Of a stretch of 10,400 bases of DNA, positions 27 to 10,400 are shown piece after piece; position 1 is the first letter of the stretch, and each line of letters starts with the position of its first letter. A program made the position numbers and the translations under genes. Under the pieces are notes generated by a model. The model did not search any database. It was not told the origin of the DNA and saw only the letters and a program-made list of their open reading frames with translations. Origin of the DNA: a virus; the UHGV virus genome UHGV-0037186. One strand, written 5' to 3'.

Positions 27-52
27 AAAAACCCGCCATTTGGCGGGTTTTA
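27..52. terminator. Intrinsic (rho-independent) terminator hairpin, symmetric so potentially bidirectional
   Basis: A-tract (27-31), stem CCCGCC (32-37) pairing with GGCGGG (42-47), 4-nt loop ATTT, then T-tract (48-51). Overlaps the stop codon (50-52, minus strand TAA) of the minus-strand ORF 50..610. Confidence 0.7.
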
Positions 53-610
53 TGCGCAAATTTTTTCGCAGTCTTGCGAGTGACTGAGTGAGCGAGTAAC
101 TCTCTCCACCTCATGAATGTCGCCCAACGATCTTATACGCAGGGCAAGATTCCACGTACTCAATGTGCGCGCGTTACGCACCAGTTCTTCCCGTGCTTTT
201 TCGTCTTTGCTGTCAAGACGACCGCAGTCGTTCAACCATTTAGCGACTTCCGCCCAGTCCCAGAGTGGAGACTGACCGCTGATACGCTGAACAGGGCAAG
301 GAAAATCACCTTTGCCACGTAATCCGTCTTTAAGCAGAGTAATAGCCTGGCGCGTTAAGCCAGAGAGTTGAGCAATATCGCTCAAGCCTACCAGTGCTGA
401 ATCTACCGATTCCACCACTGCGCCAATGCCTGCTGTTTCAATATCAAGGATTGCCGATTCGATTGCTTCATCTAAAGATTTAGCTTCTCGGTCAAATTCT
501 ACATACACTGAGTTTCCGTAGTAGCAAATGAGCGCATCATCGCAACCGTGGCTATACAGAGCATCTGCGACTACGCAGTACTGACTACAGGTTATCAGAA
601 TTATCCCCAT
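50..610 (-). CDS. Hypothetical protein, 186 aa; Cys-rich N-terminus (CxxxC ... CxxxxC) and HTH-like C-terminal segment (DIAQLSGLTRQAITLL ... WDWAEVAKWL); possible DNA-binding regulator
   Basis: Long uninterrupted minus-strand ORF ending exactly at the terminator hairpin 27-52. Protein-like composition. No recognisable Shine-Dalgarno upstream of the ATG at 608-610, so the start is uncertain. Function inferred only from motif-level resemblance. Confidence 0.5.
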   Translation of the reverse strand: MGIILITCSQYCVVADALYSHGCDDALICYYGNSVYVEFDREAKSLDEAIESAILDIETAGIGAVVESVDSALVGLSDIAQLSGLTRQAITLLKDGLRGKGDFPCPVQRISGQSPLWDWAEVAKWLNDCGRLDSKDEKAREELVRNARTLSTWNLALRIRSLGDIHEVERVTRSLSHSQDCEKICA

Positions 611-687
611 TTACATCAGCTTATCTACGTCAGCCCTCAAGTTCTTCAGCAAGCCAGCTCCACCGCCTGATTCCAACATGATAAAAT

Positions 688-711
688 TGATATACGAAAA
701 TAAGTATATAG
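688..711. promoter_or_regulatory. Inverted repeat in the divergent intergenic region (candidate operator)
   Basis: TGATATAC (688-695), 8-nt spacer, GTATATAG (704-711); arms are reverse complements at 7 of 8 positions (core ATATAC/GTATAT perfect). Lies between the minus-strand ORF start (610) and the plus-strand ATG at 720. Confidence 0.3.
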
Positions 712-719
712 ATAACATT

Positions 720-1151
720 ATGAGCGCCGATATCTACGAAAAAATCATGTCCGATCTGGAGTTCGACCGCGACAATCTGGAGGAAGTCTGGCGTCAGCAA
801 CCGCGTCTGTTGATGGAGTATGGCTCTAAGCTGGCACGGGCAGAACGTGAGGTTGCAGATGCAAAACTATCTCTCGACGCGATCGAGGCAAAAATCTATG
901 ACAACGAGCGTAAGAGCTTGAGTATGAATGGAATTAAGTTTAATGAATCCGTACTGGAAGCGAAGGTTAGAACCAACCCGCAATACCTCGCAAAGCGCCA
1001 GAAACTCGACGATGCTCGACACATTGCAGACCTGTACAAGCACGCTGTAGCCGCCTTCTCCCACCGCCGCGATATGATTGTCCAGGCGTCGAAGATGGCT
1101 ATCGTAGAGATAGAGCGTCTGGGGGCCGAACGATTCCATTTACCCCGTTAA
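720..1151 (+). CDS. Hypothetical small, predicted helix-rich protein (~143 aa); possible UvsY-like recombination mediator
   Basis: ORF in the track runs 678..1151. I prefer the in-frame ATG at 720 because the inverted repeat 688-711 would otherwise sit inside the coding sequence; neither start has a clear SD. The UvsY-like call is a from-memory pattern resemblance to T4 UvsY and the genomic context (next to gp32-like SSB and RecA-like genes), not a verified alignment. Confidence 0.5.
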   Translation: MSADIYEKIMSDLEFDRDNLEEVWRQQPRLLMEYGSKLARAEREVADAKLSLDAIEAKIYDNERKSLSMNGIKFNESVLEAKVRTNPQYLAKRQKLDDARHIADLYKHAVAAFSHRRDMIVQASKMAIVEIERLGAERFHLPR

Positions 1152-3560: not shown

Positions 3561-5900
3561 ATGGCAAAAGGCAAATCCGCACTGGCACTGGCGCTGAAAA
3601 AGAAAATCGGCAGCAATGACGAGATTCAGAAGGTCTCCCACTGGATTGACTCCGGTTTCCCTCCACTGAACAAAGCCATTTCCGGACGTTACGACGGTGG
3701 TTTTCCGTGTGGGCGTATCGTTGAAGTCTTCGGGCCACCAAGCGCGGGGAAATGTGTTACCGCAGACACCATGCTGCTGACGGAGCGTGGAATGGTAACA
3801 GTGAAAGAACTGTTTGAGATTGAGGGGCACAAAGCAACATGCACTACTCGCGATGTAGAGCATAACGTTGGACTCATCAATGAAAATGGCGTGATAGAGA
3901 AAACCTCACACCTGACATGGAACAACCGTCGCAAATTCAAGCGCATTAAGCTGGCATCAGGGGGTTACATCGAGGCTACGTTCCGTCACCCAATTCGTGT
4001 GGTTGACGACTTAGGCAATATCGTCTGGCGGTATGCTGAAAAAATCAGTGTAGGCGACACGATTCCTTCAATGGTTGGCACACATCAATTCGGCGATCAG
4101 CACTTGGATGCCAATATCGCAAAACTGATGGGCTATTTAATTGCTGACGGATACGTGGCCTCTGAAAATTCTGTGCATTTTTCTAACACAGATCCATTCA
4201 TCAAGGATGAGTACTACCGCCTCATTTCGCTGGTATCAGACAAGATGCCAGTTACGAGAAAACATAACGGCTCGGAAGACCATGTGCTGTTTAGCAAAGA
4301 GGTGCGTTCGCTGCTTTTTAAAGAATATGGTCTGGAGTATGAGAAAGCTGCTGGCAAGCAGGTTCCGTTGAGTGTGCGTCGCGCCAATAGCGAGGCTCAA
4401 ATTGCATTCCTTCGCGGCTACTTTGAGCTGGAATGCCACGTCAATGATGGTCGCTGCATTGAGGTTGTGAGCGCGAGTGGGCTGCTGCTACAGCAAATTC
4501 GCCTCATGCTCCTGAATCTGGGGATTACGTCAACTATCTCTGAAAAACACGTCGCAGGTTATAAAAACATATATTACCGGCTGTCATTCAGTGGCTCTAA
4601 CTACGACCTTTTCCTGTCAACGATTGGGTTCGAGTCTCCGGCTCGTTTAGCAGTGGCAACCAAACGGGACATTAGTTTTGACCGCACTTATTTAGGCTAC
4701 GTTCCGCACATCAGCGGCTTAGTGAAATCACTCTACGAGTCACTCACCAAGACCTCTCGTAAAGACTACGTTCTGGTAGATCACGTTATTGGCCGCGGCG
4801 ATCGTGTCGGAATAGACAAACTGCGAGAAATCTATGTCTCCTTCATTGGCAGAAAGAATCGTTTTAACGAGCATCTGTTTGCACAACTGGCAGCGGTAAT
4901 TGACTCTAACTTGTTCTACGACGAAGTCGTGGCTATTGAGGAAGGTGAAGCACCAACGTTCGACGTAGCGATGCCGGAAACACACTCTTTCTGGTCTAAC
5001 GGGATTATCAGCCACAACACATTCCTCGCGACGGCTGCGATGGTGTCAGCACAAAAACAGGATGGTCTGGCCGTATTCCTTGACCACGAAAACAGTTTCG
5101 ACGTTGGTCTGGCGGTAGCGAACGGACTGAACGCCGACGAAGACGACGGTCAGTGGGTCTACAAACAGCCGGATACCTTCGAAGACTCCGTAGAGCTGAT
5201 CGGCACAATCCTCAAGCTGGTGCGCGACGAAGAGCTTATTCCGGAAACAGCCCCTATCTGCATCGTAGCCGACTCTCTGGCGTCGATGGTTCCGAACTCG
5301 AAGGCTGAGAAGTTCGACAAGATGGCAGAAGGCACTGCGAAGGACAAAGATCAGCTGAACATGAACGACAACACGGCGCTGGCGCGCGCGACAAGTGCGA
5401 ACTTCCCTACTCTGGCGCTTTGGGCGCGTAAGTACAACGCGTGCATCATCTTCTTGAACCAGGTGCGTACCAAAATTGGTGTGATGTTTGGCGATCCGAC
5501 TACGTCTCCGGGTGGCGACTCTCCGAAGTTCTACGCGTCGGTGCGCATCCGTCTGGGTGCATCCGTCATGAAGGATGGCAAAGAGAAGATCGGACAGGAC
5601 GTTGGCGCCGAGTGCATTAAAAACAAAGTCGCACCTCCGTTTGGCAAATGCTCATGGAAATTCTACTTCGACCCGACTCGCGGGCTGGACGTCGTCGAGT
5701 CTCTGGTTGAATACATGCTGGAGGAAGGATACCTGCCCAAGAGCGCCAGCGGGCGTGTGGAAATTGGCGAGAAGAAATACACCAAATCACAGATCGTCGA
5801 GATGTACCGGGAGAAGCCATTAGCTGAAATCATTGCTGCGTTACAGGCAATAGATGACAGGCGCGAGAAGACATCACCGACAGATGAATTAGAAGATTAA
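3561..5900 (+). CDS. recA: RecA-family recombinase precursor (779 aa) containing an in-frame intein; predicted mature RecA ~357 aa
   Basis: SD AAAGGAG (3547-3553) 7 nt before ATG. N-extein ends GRIVEVFGPPSAGK (compare E. coli RecA GRIVEIYGPESSGKT). C-extein resumes with T and carries RecA-typical segments (FLNQVRTKIGVMFGDPTTSPGGDSPKFYASVRIRLG, compare E. coli [35 protein letters not shown]). Closer to bacterial RecA than to T4 UvsX, by recall. Followed by a terminator. Confidence 0.9.
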   Translation: MAKGKSALALALKKKIGSNDEIQKVSHWIDSGFPPLNKAISGRYDGGFPCGRIVEVFGPPSAGKCVTADTMLLTERGMVTVKELFEIEGHKATCTTRDVEHNVGLINENGVIEKTSHLTWNNRRKFKRIKLASGGYIEATFRHPIRVVDDLGNIVWRYAEKISVGDTIPSMVGTHQFGDQHLDANIAKLMGYLIADGYVASENSVHFSNTDPFIKDEYYRLISLVSDKMPVTRKHNGSEDHVLFSKEVRSLLFKEYGLEYEKAAGKQVPLSVRRANSEAQIAFLRGYFELECHVNDGRCIEVVSASGLLLQQIRLMLLNLGITSTISEKHVAGYKNIYYRLSFSGSNYDLFLSTIGFESPARLAVATKRDISFDRTYLGYVPHISGLVKSLYESLTKTSRKDYVLVDHVIGRGDRVGIDKLREIYVSFIGRKNRFNEHLFAQLAAVIDSNLFYDEVVAIEEGEAPTFDVAMPETHSFWSNGIISHNTFLATAAMVSAQKQDGLAVFLDHENSFDVGLAVANGLNADEDDGQWVYKQPDTFEDSVELIGTILKLVRDEELIPETAPICIVADSLASMVPNSKAEKFDKMAEGTAKDKDQLNMNDNTALARATSANFPTLALWARKYNACIIFLNQVRTKIGVMFGDPTTSPGGDSPKFYASVRIRLGASVMKDGKEKIGQDVGAECIKNKVAPPFGKCSWKFYFDPTRGLDVVESLVEYMLEEGYLPKSASGRVEIGEKKYTKSQIVEMYREKPLAEIIAALQAIDDRREKTSPTDELED
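3753..5018 (+). mobile_element. Intein (422 aa) with LAGLIDADG homing-endonuclease domain, inserted in the Walker A P-loop of the RecA-family gene
   Basis: Starts with Cys (codon 65, TGT 3753-3755) immediately after GPPSAGK. Ends ...GIISHN (His-Asn, codons 485-486) followed by Thr+1 (the Walker A Thr). Block B-like T-x-x-H (ATFRHPI). LAGLIDADG motifs LMGYLIADGYV (~4124-4156) and FLRGYFELECHV (~4407-4442). Length is a multiple of 3 (1266 nt) and in-frame. Confidence 0.85.
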
Positions 5901-5905
5901 TTTTC

Positions 5906-5930
5906 AGGCGTCCGAATGGACGCCTTTATA
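5906..5930 (+). terminator. Intrinsic terminator after the recA-like gene
   Basis: Stem AGGCGTCC (5906-5913) / GGACGCCT (5918-5925), loop GAAT, followed by TTTATA. Stem sequence is closely related to the SSB terminator stem. Confidence 0.7.
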
Positions 5931-5990
5931 CCTTGAAAATATATAAGCACTTACTTACCATCTACACACAATAGCCACATAGGAAAACAC

Positions 5991-6191
5991 ATGATCAAAC
6001 TCTATCTGATGGCAGTGGCTACAGGTATATCTGTAGTTTTCATCTACTGTTTGCTGGTTCCGTCGCTGATCTCGGCTAAAAGCAATATTGCCGTAATGCT
6101 TGGAATCATTGTTGCTTTTGGCGCTCCTGTTATCGGCTTTAATGTTGGTCGTAACTTTCTGAAGTCACTAATTAATTCGAAGGGGAAGTAA
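5991..6191 (+). CDS. Small hydrophobic membrane protein (66 aa, two predicted TM helices)
   Basis: AGGA (5981-5984) 6 nt before ATG. Two long hydrophobic stretches (LYLMAVATGISVVFIYCLLVPSLI and IAVMLGIIVAFGAPVIGF) with a basic C-terminus. Its stop overlaps the SD region of the next gene. Confidence 0.5.
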   Translation: MIKLYLMAVATGISVVFIYCLLVPSLISAKSNIAVMLGIIVAFGAPVIGFNVGRNFLKSLINSKGK

Positions 6192-6194
6192 GTA

Positions 6195-6386
6195 ATGAAG
6201 AAAGGTTTACTGGCAGTGATCGTGGCTGCTGTTTGCACAATGGGTCTTACAGGCTGCGATCGTGTTGAGCCTGGGTACGTTGGCATCAAAGTAAACAAAT
6301 TGGGTGAAGACAAAGGTATCGGTGAAGTTGTCGGCGTTGGCCGTCAGTGGACTGGTCTGAATACCGAGCTGTACACCTCTCTTTAA
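6195..6386 (+). CDS. Small lipoprotein (63 aa); possibly a truncated N-terminal fragment of an SPFH/band-7-type lipoprotein
   Basis: SD AAGGGGA 7 nt before ATG. Signal peptide MKKGLLAVIVAAVCTMG plus lipobox L-T-G-C. The mature part (VEPGYVGIKVNKLGEDKGIGEVV...) resembles the start of an SPFH domain, but the ORF stops after ~40 residues of it. Confidence 0.55.
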   Translation: MKKGLLAVIVAAVCTMGLTGCDRVEPGYVGIKVNKLGEDKGIGEVVGVGRQWTGLNTELYTSL

Positions 6387-6409
6387 GTCATCTTAAATGA
6401 CTCTGAGGT

Positions 6410-6457
6410 GTCTGTTAAACCTGTGGCGATTCAGTCTATTAAACCTGTGGCGATTCA
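6410..6457. repeat. Tandem direct repeat, 2 x 24 bp (GTCTGTTAAACCTGTGGCGATTCA / GTCTATTAAACCTGTGGCGATTCA), one mismatch
   Basis: Read directly from the sequence at 6410-6433 and 6434-6457. Lies in the 232-bp AT-rich non-coding spacer between the lipoprotein ORF and hsdM. Confidence 0.8.
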
Positions 6458-6618
6458 CTTTATGGTGTCATAAACTTAAATCTAGCGCCGGGTAGAACAA
6501 GTTAATCGAACGATGTAGCGGCCATTTAGGCGTTACAGAAAGAACAGAATTTTAAATTTATAGTGAAGCCGTTGCAGCAACTTTGTGGGGTGCAACCAAC
6601 ACTGAACAGGAAAAGAAA

Positions 6619-9042
6619 ATGGATCATAGTGTACATAACAAGCTCATCTCATTTATTTGGAACATTGCCGACGACTGTTTACGTGATGTGTACGTTCGCG
6701 GTAAGTACCGCGATGTGATTTTACCTATGGTGGTATTACGACGTTTAGATACGTTACTTGAACCCACCAAAGAAGCCGTGCTTGAAGAGGTCAAGTTCCA
6801 AAAAGAAGAGATGCAAGCCACGGAGCTTGATGATGAACCATTGAAGGCGGCTAGTGGTTATGTTTTTTACAATACATCTAAATGGACCCTGAAATCCCTG
6901 TTCAACACCGCAACGAATAACCAACAGATATTACTCGCCAACTTTGAAGAGTACCTGCTTGGCTTTAGCGATAATGTTAAAGAAATCATTGAATGCTTTA
7001 ACCTCAAGTTGCAAATTCGTCACATGGCCTCAAAGCAAGTCCTTCTTGATGTCGTCGAAAAGTTTGTTTCCCCTTACATCAACTTAACTCATGAAACGGT
7101 CGAAGACCCAGATGGCAACAAGATGCCAGCCCTTACTAACCTGGGTATGGGGTACGTGTTCGAAGAGTTGATCCGTAAGTTCAACGAAGAAAACAACGAA
7201 GAAGCCGGTGAGCACTTTACACCTAGGGAAGTGATTGAGCTGATGACACACTTGGTTTTTGACCCAGTGAAAGAGCAGCTACCATTGACCATGACCGTTT
7301 ACGACCCTGCGTGTGGTAGCGGTGGTATGCTCACTGAATCTCAAAACTTCATTGAAGAGAAATACCCGAACGACAGCCGAGATATTTACCTTTACGGCAA
7401 AGAGATCAATGACGAGACCTACGCGATTTGTAAATCGGACATGATGATCAAAGGCAACAACCCTGAGAACATCAAAGTAGGCTCAACCTTGTCTACCGAC
7501 GAGTTTGCGGCTTCACGCTTTGACTTTATGTTGTCTAACCCGCCATACGGTAAGAGTTGGGCGTCTGAACAGAAGTACATTAAAGACGGCAGTGATGTGA
7601 TTGACCCGCGTTTTAAGGTTAGCCTGAAAGACTATTGGGGAAATCTCGAAGTGGTGGATGCCACGCCACGTTCGAGTGATGGCCAGCTGCTTTTCTTAAT
7701 GGAGATGGTCAACAAGATGAAAGATCCGAGCGTAAGTCCATTAGGCAGCCGGATTGCCTCTGTTCATAACGGCTCATCGCTCTTTACCGGTGATGCGGGC
7801 GGTGGCGAAAGTAATATTCGTCGCTTCATCATTGAAAACGACATGCTAGATGCCATCGTTCAGTTACCTAATAACCTGTTCTATAACACTGGCATTACCA
7901 CTTACATTTGGGTGTTGAGCAACAATAAACCTGAGGCGCGTAAAGGTAAGGTGCAATTAATTGATGCCAGCTTGCTCTACCGTAAGTTGCGCAAGAACTT
8001 AGGTAACAAAAACTGCGAATTTGCGCCTGAGCACATCACGGAAATTACCGATACTTACCTCGCGTGTAAGGATGTTGAAAGAGCACTGGATGCAAACAAT
8101 GATCCTGTTGGCATCGCCAGTAAGGTATTCAGCAATGACGATTTTGGCTACTACAAAGTCACTATCGAGCGCCCAGATCGCCGCAAAGCCAAGTTTACTC
8201 AAGATGCCATAGCCCCACTGCGTTTTGATAAGCAACTTAGTGAAGTGATGGAGTACGTGTACGCAGAGCACGGCGAACGTGTTTACGAAAAAACTGGCTA
8301 CGGGTCAGATCAGAAAAAGAGCTTCTTAAAATCCATCGAGAAAGACATTCTTTCTTGGTGTGAAGATAACGACATCAGTCTCAATGCTAAGGCTAAGGCC
8401 AAACTGCTTGATGTGAAACACTGGCTGGCGCTAAAAGCATTGCTTGAAACTGCACAAACGCTGATGGCTGACATCGGTAGCATTGAATTTGATGACTTCA
8501 ATAGCTTTAAAACCCAAGTTGATAAATCGCTAAAAGCCCATGCTATTAAGCTTTCAGCACCTGAGAAAAATGCCATTCTTCACGCGGTGAGCTGGTATGA
8601 CGAAACCGCCAAGAAAGTGGTTAAAAAGGTAGTTAAATTAACGGGTGATAAATTAAACGACCTGCTGGAGCGCTATGAGTGTGAAGTCGCTGACTTGCCA
8701 GATTTTGGTTATTACCCCGTTCCTTCAGCAGAAGGCGGTAAAAAAGGCGAGTATATCACTTACGAGACCAATTCAGACCTGCGAGATACAGAATCTGTTC
8801 CATTAAAGCAAAGCATTTACCAGTACTTCCTAGATGAAGTGAAGCCTCATGTCGATGAAGCATGGATAAACCTAGATACGGTAAAAATTGGCTATGAAAT
8901 CAGCTTCAATAAGTATTTCTACCGTCATAAACCGCTGCGTAGTTTAGAAGAGGTCGCAACCGACATCATCAACCTAGAACAAAAAGCCGAAGGTTTGATT
9001 GCGCAGATTCTTGGTGCGGAAGTAAAAAAGGTTCAGGGGTAA
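6619..9042 (+). CDS. hsdM: Type I restriction-modification system, DNA methyltransferase subunit M (N6-adenine), unusually long (~807 aa)
   Basis: SD AGGA (6608-6611) 7 nt before ATG 6619; the track's 6583 start is an upstream TTG extension. HsdM N-terminal domain signature (LISFIWNIADDCLRDVYVRGKYRDVILPMVVLRRLD), FTPREV, AdoMet motif I DPACGSGGML (~7303-7332) and catalytic motif IV NPPYG (~7537-7551). About 330 aa extend beyond the catalytic core. Confidence 0.9.
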   Translation: MDHSVHNKLISFIWNIADDCLRDVYVRGKYRDVILPMVVLRRLDTLLEPTKEAVLEEVKFQKEEMQATELDDEPLKAASGYVFYNTSKWTLKSLFNTATNNQQILLANFEEYLLGFSDNVKEIIECFNLKLQIRHMASKQVLLDVVEKFVSPYINLTHETVEDPDGNKMPALTNLGMGYVFEELIRKFNEENNEEAGEHFTPREVIELMTHLVFDPVKEQLPLTMTVYDPACGSGGMLTESQNFIEEKYPNDSRDIYLYGKEINDETYAICKSDMMIKGNNPENIKVGSTLSTDEFAASRFDFMLSNPPYGKSWASEQKYIKDGSDVIDPRFKVSLKDYWGNLEVVDATPRSSDGQLLFLMEMVNKMKDPSVSPLGSRIASVHNGSSLFTGDAGGGESNIRRFIIENDMLDAIVQLPNNLFYNTGITTYIWVLSNNKPEARKGKVQLIDASLLYRKLRKNLGNKNCEFAPEHITEITDTYLACKDVERALDANNDPVGIASKVFSNDDFGYYKVTIERPDRRKAKFTQDAIAPLRFDKQLSEVMEYVYAEHGERVYEKTGYGSDQKKSFLKSIEKDILSWCEDNDISLNAKAKAKLLDVKHWLALKALLETAQTLMADIGSIEFDDFNSFKTQVDKSLKAHAIKLSAPEKNAILHAVSWYDETAKKVVKKVVKLTGDKLNDLLERYECEVADLPDFGYYPVPSAEGGKKGEYITYETNSDLRDTESVPLKQSIYQYFLDEVKPHVDEAWINLDTVKIGYEISFNKYFYRHKPLRSLEEVATDIINLEQKAEGLIAQILGAEVKKVQG

Positions 9043-9048
9043 GTCGTT

Positions 9049-10350
9049 ATGATGAAGATTTCTGAAATGCCGAAATATGAGGTTTATAAGGATTCAGGTG
9101 TTGAATGGCTAGGGGATATTCCTGCGTCTTGGAGCTTATTAGCTAATAAGCACATCTTTCGCTTGAAGAAAAAACAGGTTGGAAAACGCTCAAGCGAATA
9201 TGATTTGCTATCGCTTACTCTCAGAGGTGTGATTAAGCGTGATATGGAAAACCCAGAGGGTAAGTTCCCAGCAGAGTTCGATACTTATCAAGAAGTGCAG
9301 TGTGGAGATTTCATTTTCTGCTTGTTCGACGTGGAAGAAACACCCAGAACTGTTGGGTTGTCGCCATTTAATGGGATGATTACTGGTGCATATACCGTTT
9401 TTGAACTAAATGACAATTTTGATAATAGGTTTTTATACTATTTTTATATGAACCTTGATGCAAAAAAGATGCTTAAACCGCTTTATCGTGGCCTGAGAAA
9501 TACAATTCCTAAAGATTCATTTCTGAGTTTTAAGACGTTTGTTCCTCCCCATGAGCAACAAACCCGTATCGCCAACTTCCTAGACAAGAAAACCGCTCTA
9601 ATCGACGAAGCGATTTCGATCAAAGAGCAGCAAATTAGCCTGCTGAAAGAGCGTAAGCAGATCATCATCCAACAGGCGGTGACCCAAGGGCTTGATCCCA
9701 ATGTGCCAATGAAAGACTCCGGTGTGGATTGGATTGGTAAGATTCCAGCGCATTGGGATATTGTGCCAGGATTTACAGTATTTAAAGAGGGAAAAGACTC
9801 GAACAAAGGGATGATTGAATCACAAGTTTTATCTCTCAGTTATGGAAATGTTATTATAAAACCAGAGGAGAAATTGGTTGGGCTTGTACCTGAGTCTTTT
9901 GAAACGTATCAAATAGCTTTACCTGGCGACATCATAATACGTTGTACAGACTTGCAAAATGACAAAACGAGCTTGAGAACGGGTATAGTGCGGAATAAAG
10001 GAATTATAACTAGTGCTTACCTTAACTTACGGTTGAAAACGGAACATTCAGCTGAATTTATGCATTATTTTCTTCATGTATTAGATATAACTAAAACTAT
10101 ATATCGTTTTGGTTCTGGGCTGAGACAAAACTTGAGTTATAAAGATTTTAAGCATATGAGAATATTGATGCCTCCTAAAGCAGAGCAAATTGAAATAGTA
10201 AATTACATCAATAATCAAGTAGAAGTGACTGAGTCATCTATTGATCTGATTAAAAATAAAATAGAAAAATTAAAAGAATACAAAACCACCCTGATCAACA
10301 GCGCCGTGACAGGAAAAATAAAAATCACCCCAGAAATGGTTGAGCAATAG
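9049..10350 (+). CDS. hsdS: Type I restriction-modification system, specificity subunit S (two target-recognition domains)
   Basis: Starts 6 nt after the hsdM stop (translational coupling). Internal duplicated architecture typical of HsdS: TRD1 begins SGVEWLGDIPASWSL, TRD2 begins SGVDWIGKIPAHWDI; conserved central region (PPHEQQTRIANFLDKKTALIDEAI) and C-terminal region (PPKAEQIEIVNYINNQVEVTESSI). The 3' half is very AT-rich. Confidence 0.85.
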   Translation: MMKISEMPKYEVYKDSGVEWLGDIPASWSLLANKHIFRLKKKQVGKRSSEYDLLSLTLRGVIKRDMENPEGKFPAEFDTYQEVQCGDFIFCLFDVEETPRTVGLSPFNGMITGAYTVFELNDNFDNRFLYYFYMNLDAKKMLKPLYRGLRNTIPKDSFLSFKTFVPPHEQQTRIANFLDKKTALIDEAISIKEQQISLLKERKQIIIQQAVTQGLDPNVPMKDSGVDWIGKIPAHWDIVPGFTVFKEGKDSNKGMIESQVLSLSYGNVIIKPEEKLVGLVPESFETYQIALPGDIIIRCTDLQNDKTSLRTGIVRNKGIITSAYLNLRLKTEHSAEFMHYFLHVLDITKTIYRFGSGLRQNLSYKDFKHMRILMPPKAEQIEIVNYINNQVEVTESSIDLIKNKIEKLKEYKTTLINSAVTGKIKITPEMVEQ

Positions 10351-10359
10351 GACGCGAAT

Positions 10360-10400
10360 ATGTTCACGGTAAATCATCAAACCAACAGGATTAGTCCTGT
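10360..10400 (+). CDS. 5' end of an unidentified downstream ORF (MFTVNHQTNRISP...), truncated by the window edge
   Basis: ATG at 10360, 9 nt after the hsdS stop, with a weak AGGA upstream. Only 13 codons visible; could be hsdR or an accessory gene, and cannot be identified from this fragment. Confidence 0.2.
   Translation, partial: MFTVNHQTNRISP

Follow-up and report, generated by a model that had tools for sequence, protein, structure and literature searches.

The open reading frame (ORF) at 6195-6386 on the plus strand of the window, that is, of the whole 10,400-nt stretch of UHGV virus genome UHGV-0037186 that was analysed, is with a probability of roughly 0.93 a pseudogene remnant: the first 61 of the 276 codons of the SPFH lipoprotein gene belonging to the SSU5/pMT1-type backbone, left in place when the adjoining backbone was replaced. 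The pseudogene is already known, as it is flagged in RefSeq by PGAP, where window positions 6195-6374 are described as 'SPFH/Band 7/PHB domain protein; incomplete; missing C-terminus' and the incomplete-gene call recurs in three independent RefSeq records (pB379_2 and two other plasmids). The window comes from an SSU5-type phage-plasmid; among phage records its nearest are Escherichia phage Cyrano and Salmonella phage SSU5, and a single base separates it from the E. coli plasmid pB379_2 (NZ_CP090457.1). Pfam recognises in the window a gp32-like single-strand-binding protein, a 5'-3' exonuclease and an intein-split RecA and, after the ORF, HsdM and HsdS. The features on which the analysis turns are the following:

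5991-6191, plus strand: intact gene of a 66-aa two-helix membrane protein (phrog_1130 'membrane protein', E 8.3e-24; Cyrano/SSU5 gene order; RefSeq)
6195-6378, plus strand: what is left of the SPFH/Band 7 gene at its 5' end (codons 1-61 and 1 nt), comprising signal peptide, LTGC and 39 residues from the start of the SPFH domain
6195-6386, plus strand: the ORF as read today, 63 codons plus stop, in which Ser62, Leu63 and TAA come from IS-leader DNA
6374-6378, no strand: junction overlap CACCT, the breakpoint; the window agrees with SSU5 as far as 6378 and with the SfIV IS copy from 6374 on
6374-6433, minus strand: IS3-family remnant (ISEhe3 type), left inverted repeat TGAATCGCCACAGGTTTAACAGAC... 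and 5' leader
6434-6457, minus strand: second copy of the IS left inverted repeat, 24 nt, abutting the first and 23/24 identical to it
6458-6505, plus strand: tail of a WYL-domain gene, last 15 codons (LYGVINLNLAPGRTS) and stop, from the alignment to V. gigantis p1
6506-6618, plus strand: native intergenic region upstream of hsdM, conserved with the Vibrio module and the E. coli chromosomal copies, travelling with the R-M module
6619-9042, plus strand: hsdM, type I R-M methyltransferase, 807 aa (Pfam N6_Mtase 4.1e-60, HsdM_N 6.5e-23; RefSeq start)
9049-10350, plus strand: hsdS, type I R-M specificity subunit (Pfam Methylase_S 3.4e-11, two stretches; RefSeq)

The severed SPFH lipoprotein gene

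The ORF opens with an ATG 3 nt past the stop of the 66-aa membrane-protein gene and encodes, in 63 codons, the product MKKGLLAVIVAAVCTMGLTGCDRVEPGYVGIKVNKLGEDKGIGEVVGVGRQWTGLNTELYTSL. The N-terminus is a lipoprotein signal peptide, MKK-GLLAVIVAAVCTMG-LTG-C21, with K within the first 7 residues and a match to the PROSITE-type lipoprotein regex. A lipobox was taken as [LVI][ASTVI][GAS]C preceded by a basic n-region and then a hydrophobic h-region, its Cys falling at positions 15-35, and the product carries one (LTGC, Cys21), as the first-pass annotation of this DNA had claimed; the predicted mature part amounts to 43 aa, in agreement with the ~40 residues given there. Residue +2 is Asp (Asp22, from the sequence). 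In the Lol sorting of E. coli, Asp at +2 leads to retention in the inner membrane, and the lipopeptide predicted from the ORF would be kept there by this residue.

The proposal that the ORF is the severed N-terminus of an SPFH/band-7 lipoprotein is borne out, its first 184 nt being collinear with intact 831-nt genes whose products match Band_7 at E~1e-30. The full-length homologues that were to be sought in related genomes are present in SSU5, in Cyrano and in 173 plasmids, and those of the two phages were aligned to find the breakpoint. In both phages the complete gene measures 831 nt (276 aa). The remnant shares 169/184 nt (92%) and 58/61 residues with SSU5_062 (protein accession AFL46989.1), and 156/184 nt and 57/61 residues with CYRAN_57 of Cyrano. 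The intact gene is annotated as 'putative SPFH domain / band 7 protein' in SSU5 and as 'stomatin-like integral membrane protein' in Cyrano; both products match Pfam Band_7 (PF01145) over residues 23-209 (E 4.5e-31 for SSU5_062, E 2.6e-30 for CYRAN_57), the domain beginning, in line with the first-pass annotation, at V23 of 'VEPGYVG...', and the intact proteins carry a weak flotillin-like tail behind Band_7 in Pfam. The 63-aa product itself gave 0 Pfam families even at E<=1; it is too short for the Band_7 profile, of which it spans only positions ~2-40 of 176. As there is no direct Pfam match, the SPFH assignment of the ORF rests on orthology to the Band_7 proteins, which is evident in the collinear DNA and in the shared locus. 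Among the PHROGs, the 63-aa product matches phrog_200 'lipoprotein' at 1.4e-17.

The intact orthologues in SSU5, Cyrano and the 173 plasmids occupy the same locus, after recA and the small membrane-protein gene. In PLSDB the gene was found in 201 plasmids, 173 of which have it at 80% of its length or more, and the genera across all 201 are Yersinia (63), Enterobacter (48), Salmonella (42) and others; the intact gene is also present in Y. pestis pMT1-type plasmids, where it is named 'SPFH domain-containing protein', and among the matches listed the short ones are E. coli plasmids with nt 1-184 or less. The ORF shares with the SSU5-type SPFH lipoprotein gene the position after recA and the 66-aa gene, the signal peptide and the lipobox; unlike SSU5_062 and CYRAN_57, it is without codons 62-276 (about 79% of Band_7 and the flotillin-like coiled-coil tail) and it ends in two foreign codons. 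A complete SPFH domain is absent from the ORF, in which only residues 23-61 of 23-209 are left. These 39 of about 187 domain residues are too few for the fold, and consequently the SPFH function of the remnant is lost.

The likeness to HflC/QmcA-type proteins that had been remarked on holds at the superfamily level: HflK/HflC, QmcA and flotillin share a superfamily with the intact orthologue, as indicated by its Band_7 match and weak HflC/HflK similarity. It does not extend to membership in the HflC and HflK families, since the NCBIfam scores of the intact orthologue lie below the cut-offs (HflC TIGR01932, 29.3 bits vs 134.4; HflK TIGR01933, 17.1 vs 159.4); the 63-aa product matched neither TIGR01932 nor TIGR01933. 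Unlike HflK/HflC, QmcA and flotillin, the intact orthologue has a lipobox anchor in place of the N-terminal transmembrane helix. A PDB sequence search with the intact orthologue returned nothing at E<=0.001, and PADLOC gave no match for the intact SPFH protein, the remnant or the 66-aa partner, and so no support for a known defence role; a full-text literature search turned up no paper about the SPFH gene carried by SSU5-type elements. SPFH lipoprotein genes related to it are present in the P2-like phage P88, in Stx prophages (labelled 'serine protease') and in the Salmonella jumbo phage 7t3. Two PHROGs of 'unknown function' correspond to parts of the SPFH lipoprotein, phrog_21428 to the N-terminal 63 residues and phrog_38808 to the C-terminal 68, and both appear to be families built from gene fragments.

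The breakpoint, the IS debris and the origin of the R-M module

Homology to the intact SPFH gene stops at 6378, not at 6386, the last matching letters being ...GAGCTGTACACCT. The earlier placement of the insertion boundary near 6386 was right in that the gene is cut where foreign DNA starts, but the breakpoint itself lies at 6374-6378, 8-12 nt to the left. The CACCT found there is common to the SPFH gene and the IS leader (5-nt overlap). From this point on, 6374-6433 is identical at 60/60 positions to Shigella phage SfIV (L006:4001-4060, reverse complement of the IS left end), in a segment that lies directly upstream of ISEhe3 orfA, on the opposite strand. The IS remnant terminates on the minus strand in TGAATCGCCACAGG and has both the 5'-TG terminal inverted repeat and the leader; the IS sequence ends 4 nt before the orfA ATG, and there it is fused to the SPFH gene. 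The left inverted repeat and leader of the IS3-family element annotated as ISEhe3 in SfIV (L006:2833-4060) are the same as 6374-6433; compared with that element only 60 + 24 nt are left in the window, so that the remnant cannot move, and 6374-6457, being without the orfA/orfB transposase and the right inverted repeat, is not a complete mobile element. Full 1.2-kb copies of the ISEhe3-type IS occur in 179 complete E. coli genomes, and because of these many copies the 60-nt piece matches >2,000 plasmids. As the junction lies inside the IS and not at its tip, it is not a transposition joint; the 5-nt CACCT overlap suggests instead a microhomology-mediated deletion or an illegitimate join.

The ORF had been described as ending before an AT-rich spacer and a tandem repeat. 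The repeat is real (2 x 24 nt head-to-tail, 6410-6433 and 6434-6457, 96% identical), but the 'spacer' consists of the IS remnant and the tail of the WYL gene. The tandem copy number is polymorphic, pM160133_p3 (L010) having a single 24-nt unit. The second 24-mer was also considered as the right inverted repeat of the IS, which direct comparison led us to reject (19/24 with the right repeat vs 23/24 with the left). The direct tandem of one IS end could have originated by replication slippage, or by the IS landing beside an IR-like sequence. The minus strand of the IS left end contains a promoter-like sequence (TTAACA-17-TAAGAT, 6418 to 6390; consensus match only). IS3-family elements have an inward promoter at their left end; the site at 6418-6390, if active, would give antisense RNA across the remnant.

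The IS left end abuts the WYL tail, which indicates that the IS first landed in the WYL gene and that its remnant then moved with the R-M module; the WYL tail thus marks the original IS insertion site. In the V. gigantis plasmid p1 a Tn7-like element contains hsdM-hsdS-DUF4268-hsdR behind tnsD, tnsE and a WYL-domain gene, and this region (L012 1-9953) has about 93% nucleotide identity to window 6458-10400, with matching gene order and WYL tail; in p1, unlike in the window, the WYL gene is intact and an IS remnant is absent. The stretch first read as a spacer plus tandem repeat is accordingly explained as IS debris and WYL tail, and ties the E. coli R-M module to the Vibrio Tn7-like element. 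Given a module ~93% identical in that element, the R-M module has thus passed between Vibrionaceae and Enterobacteriaceae, carried by different vehicles. The E. coli chromosomal modules are 100% identical to the window over the hsdM upstream region, and differ from it in that their IS-leader remnant is present only from window position 6388 on, the right end of a second IS3-family element, host to a group II intron, having truncated it 14 nt deeper; the phage-plasmid form has the longest IS remnant seen.

The cargo beside the ORF is a type I R-M system, comprising HsdM, HsdS with two target-recognition domains, and HsdR, whose gene is annotated in pB379_2 1.2 kb past the window end. The start of hsdM differs between sources: the ORF finder gave TTG 6583 (819 aa), whereas RefSeq and the Vibrio homologue give ATG 6619 after AGGAAAAG (807 aa). 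The DUF4268 gene inside the R-M operon (L008:17166-18328; L009:12985-14148) matches the PADLOC candidate PDC-S11 (E 3.5e-182); lying between hsdS and hsdR, it is frameshifted in pB379_2 and intact in the E. coli chromosomal and Vibrio copies. A phage-plasmid survey names RM systems, and nothing more specific, among the defence systems of the E. coli/Shigella clade.

Extent and spread of the backbone replacement

The truncation of the gene had been attributed to the insertion of an hsdMS cassette. The cut does lie where the R-M cargo starts, but the event was a replacement, and it is IS debris that adjoins the gene: SSU5 homology in pB379_2 resumes at L003:24999 (= SSU5 L002:7945), corresponding to a gain of about 12.5 kb of cargo and a loss of 1,471 bp (about 1.47 kb) of SSU5 backbone. 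The lost backbone held the 3' 647 nt of the SPFH gene, a NinX-like gene and most of the next ORF; the cargo includes the IS remnant, the WYL tail, hsdM, hsdS, the frameshifted DUF4268 gene, hsdR, IS3-family fragments, a group II intron and an IS110-family element. At the right cargo boundary, an IS3-family right terminus, presumably IS911-like, stands against backbone DNA (...GGTGGCCAGTTTTTGTTGACCACTTCA abutting TCTACAC), and this IS end is nearly identical to the one adjoining the remnant in chromosomes. The displaced 3' part of the gene, expected beyond the R-M locus, was not there: tblastn found no SPFH C-terminal part in the 27.9-kb locus, and the PLSDB plasmids have one SPFH-matching place per record and no second. 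The cargo replaced backbone genes, so that the region behind recA is a site of plasticity in SSU5-type elements, and the left edge of the cargo region in this phage-plasmid lineage is fixed at 6374-6378.

An IS3-family element with a group II intron (ltrA WP_001189111.1 in both cases) is found at L003:20655-24998 and at L009:5505-8995. This intron-bearing element flanking the R-M module, which we take to be IS911-like, is found right of hsdR in the plasmid, where the IS110-family element splits it further, and left of hsdM in the chromosome; the arrangement is suggestive of a composite unit, bounded by IS elements, that encloses the R-M module.

The junction is present in 21/5426 complete E. 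coli genomes and in 30 PLSDB plasmids, and is base-for-base identical across all the phage-plasmid variants aligned, which is consistent with one ancestral event. The region has 99.8-100% identity in 17 records. Two plasmids have eroded further, as fits a dispensable remnant: in both, the first 43-48 nt of the remnant have been lost or replaced. In p1 of strain cM2a the loss takes in recA, the 66-aa gene and 43 nt at the start of the remnant; in pLR-46_1 the part recognised as SPFH is down to 90 nt. A precursor with an intact IS beside the WYL tail and hsdM was looked for with a synthetic query of 602 nt, a record being counted at a coverage of at least 80%, and none was found in 5426 E. coli genomes or 72,556 plasmids (0 records in either set); the longest matches to this query begin exactly at the CACCT junction, and a precursor pattern scan over one genome per species gave 0 matches. 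As no precursor was found, the order of events stays inferential. In the course that we propose, about 12.5 kb of cargo would have replaced the backbone segment in one E. coli/Shigella lineage, the left joint would have formed inside the IS, 4 nt before orfA, by microhomology-mediated deletion or illegitimate joining, and the reading frame would since have run two codons into the IS leader before meeting TAA.

Had a discrete hsdMS cassette simply transposed into the SPFH gene, the 3' part of the gene would be expected directly past the cassette, and a target-site duplication at each end. The exact break of the gene at the start of the foreign DNA, and the right boundary formed by a true IS3-family terminal repeat against backbone, would suit such an insertion, which is nevertheless very improbable: the SPFH 3' part is missing both from the 27.9 kb surrounding the locus and from the rest of the plasmids, SSU5 backbone amounting to about 1,471 bp is gone, the left junction falls within the IS leader and not at an IS or transposon terminus, and the two boundaries are of two different IS types. 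That the ORF is instead a complete, genuine lipoprotein family of ~63 aa, merely resembling the start of SPFH proteins, is hardly credible even though the 63-position profile of phrog_21428 matches the product end to end (E 3e-38) and a lipobox and a favourable start context are present, because the same 61 residues match the N-terminus of phrog_200, the DNA shares 92% identity with the start of the 831-nt gene found at this position in relatives, IS DNA supplies the final two codons and the stop, PGAP calls the ORF incomplete, and the full-length protein also matches phrog_21428 over residues 1-60. Thus phrog_21428 is not an independent family without longer relatives; the first-pass annotation had held that a complete family of ~60 aa would speak against its reading, and the residues of phrog_21428 proved to match the start of the full-length phrog_200 as well.

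Also to be weighed is that the remnant was kept as useful, either as a short inner-membrane lipopeptide, perhaps with the 66-aa protein, or as a translated spacer aiding read-through into hsdM. The ribosome-binding site, ATG, signal peptide, lipobox and upstream partner gene are all intact, there is no terminator-like site from the ORF to hsdM, and the 17 near-identical records (99.8-100%) could be taken for conservation. However, the identity spans the whole region, which points to recent common descent and not to selection; the 5' end of the remnant is lost or replaced in two plasmids, in one of which the partner gene is also lost; and only 39 of about 187 domain residues are left, all of which makes such retention very unlikely. 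The corresponding functional claim, that the truncated gene is a working gene for a 43-residue inner-membrane lipopeptide co-made with the 66-aa protein and having its own role in the phage-plasmid, would be a long shot; if true, that role might be, for example, membrane-level exclusion of other phages, or that of a translated leader coupling the recA-operon transcript to hsdM. A pseudogene left by backbone replacement remains the reading that we prefer, and no finding speaks against the pseudogene.

Possible expression of the remnant and its neighbouring genes

A pseudogene of this kind may still be expressed. The intact ribosome-binding site, the start codon and the upstream partner gene point to translation of the ORF, and a short lipopeptide may therefore still be made from the remnant; if translated, the ORF would yield a 43-residue lipopeptide placed in the inner membrane by Asp +2. 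From the ORF to hsdM the scan called no terminator, so that upstream transcripts may read into hsdM. Promoter hits in the scan are consensus matches only. Directly past the recA stop there is a GC-rich hairpin (5905-5930, AGGCGTCC-GAAT-GGACGCCT, then TTAT), which was not called by the terminator scan, and a promoter-like site (5933-5961) lies ahead of the membrane-protein gene. The hairpin after recA and this promoter-like site together suggest that the membrane-protein/SPFH pair is a transcription unit of its own. The 66-aa membrane protein (phrog_1130, 'moron/host takeover') and the SPFH lipoprotein are encoded by two closely spaced genes whose pairing is conserved in SSU5/pMT1-type elements; no NfeD-like partner for the SPFH gene pair was found by Pfam.

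The recA gene upstream of the pair (3561-5900, plus strand) encodes 779 aa with a LAGLIDADG intein (Pfam RecA, Intein_splicing, LAGLIDADG_3). The recA of SSU5 measures 1,077 nt and has no intein, and Cyrano has the long form; the RefSeq name of the intein-bearing RecA, 'LAGLIDADG family homing endonuclease', masks its identity. Near the left end of the window, the 157-aa ORF at 678-1151 (plus strand) corresponds to the 'UvsY recombination mediator' gene of Cyrano, with no significant Pfam match, and the divergent 186-aa ORF at 50-610 (minus strand) is a helix-turn-helix regulator in RefSeq, at a place where Cyrano has a HicAB toxin-antitoxin pair.
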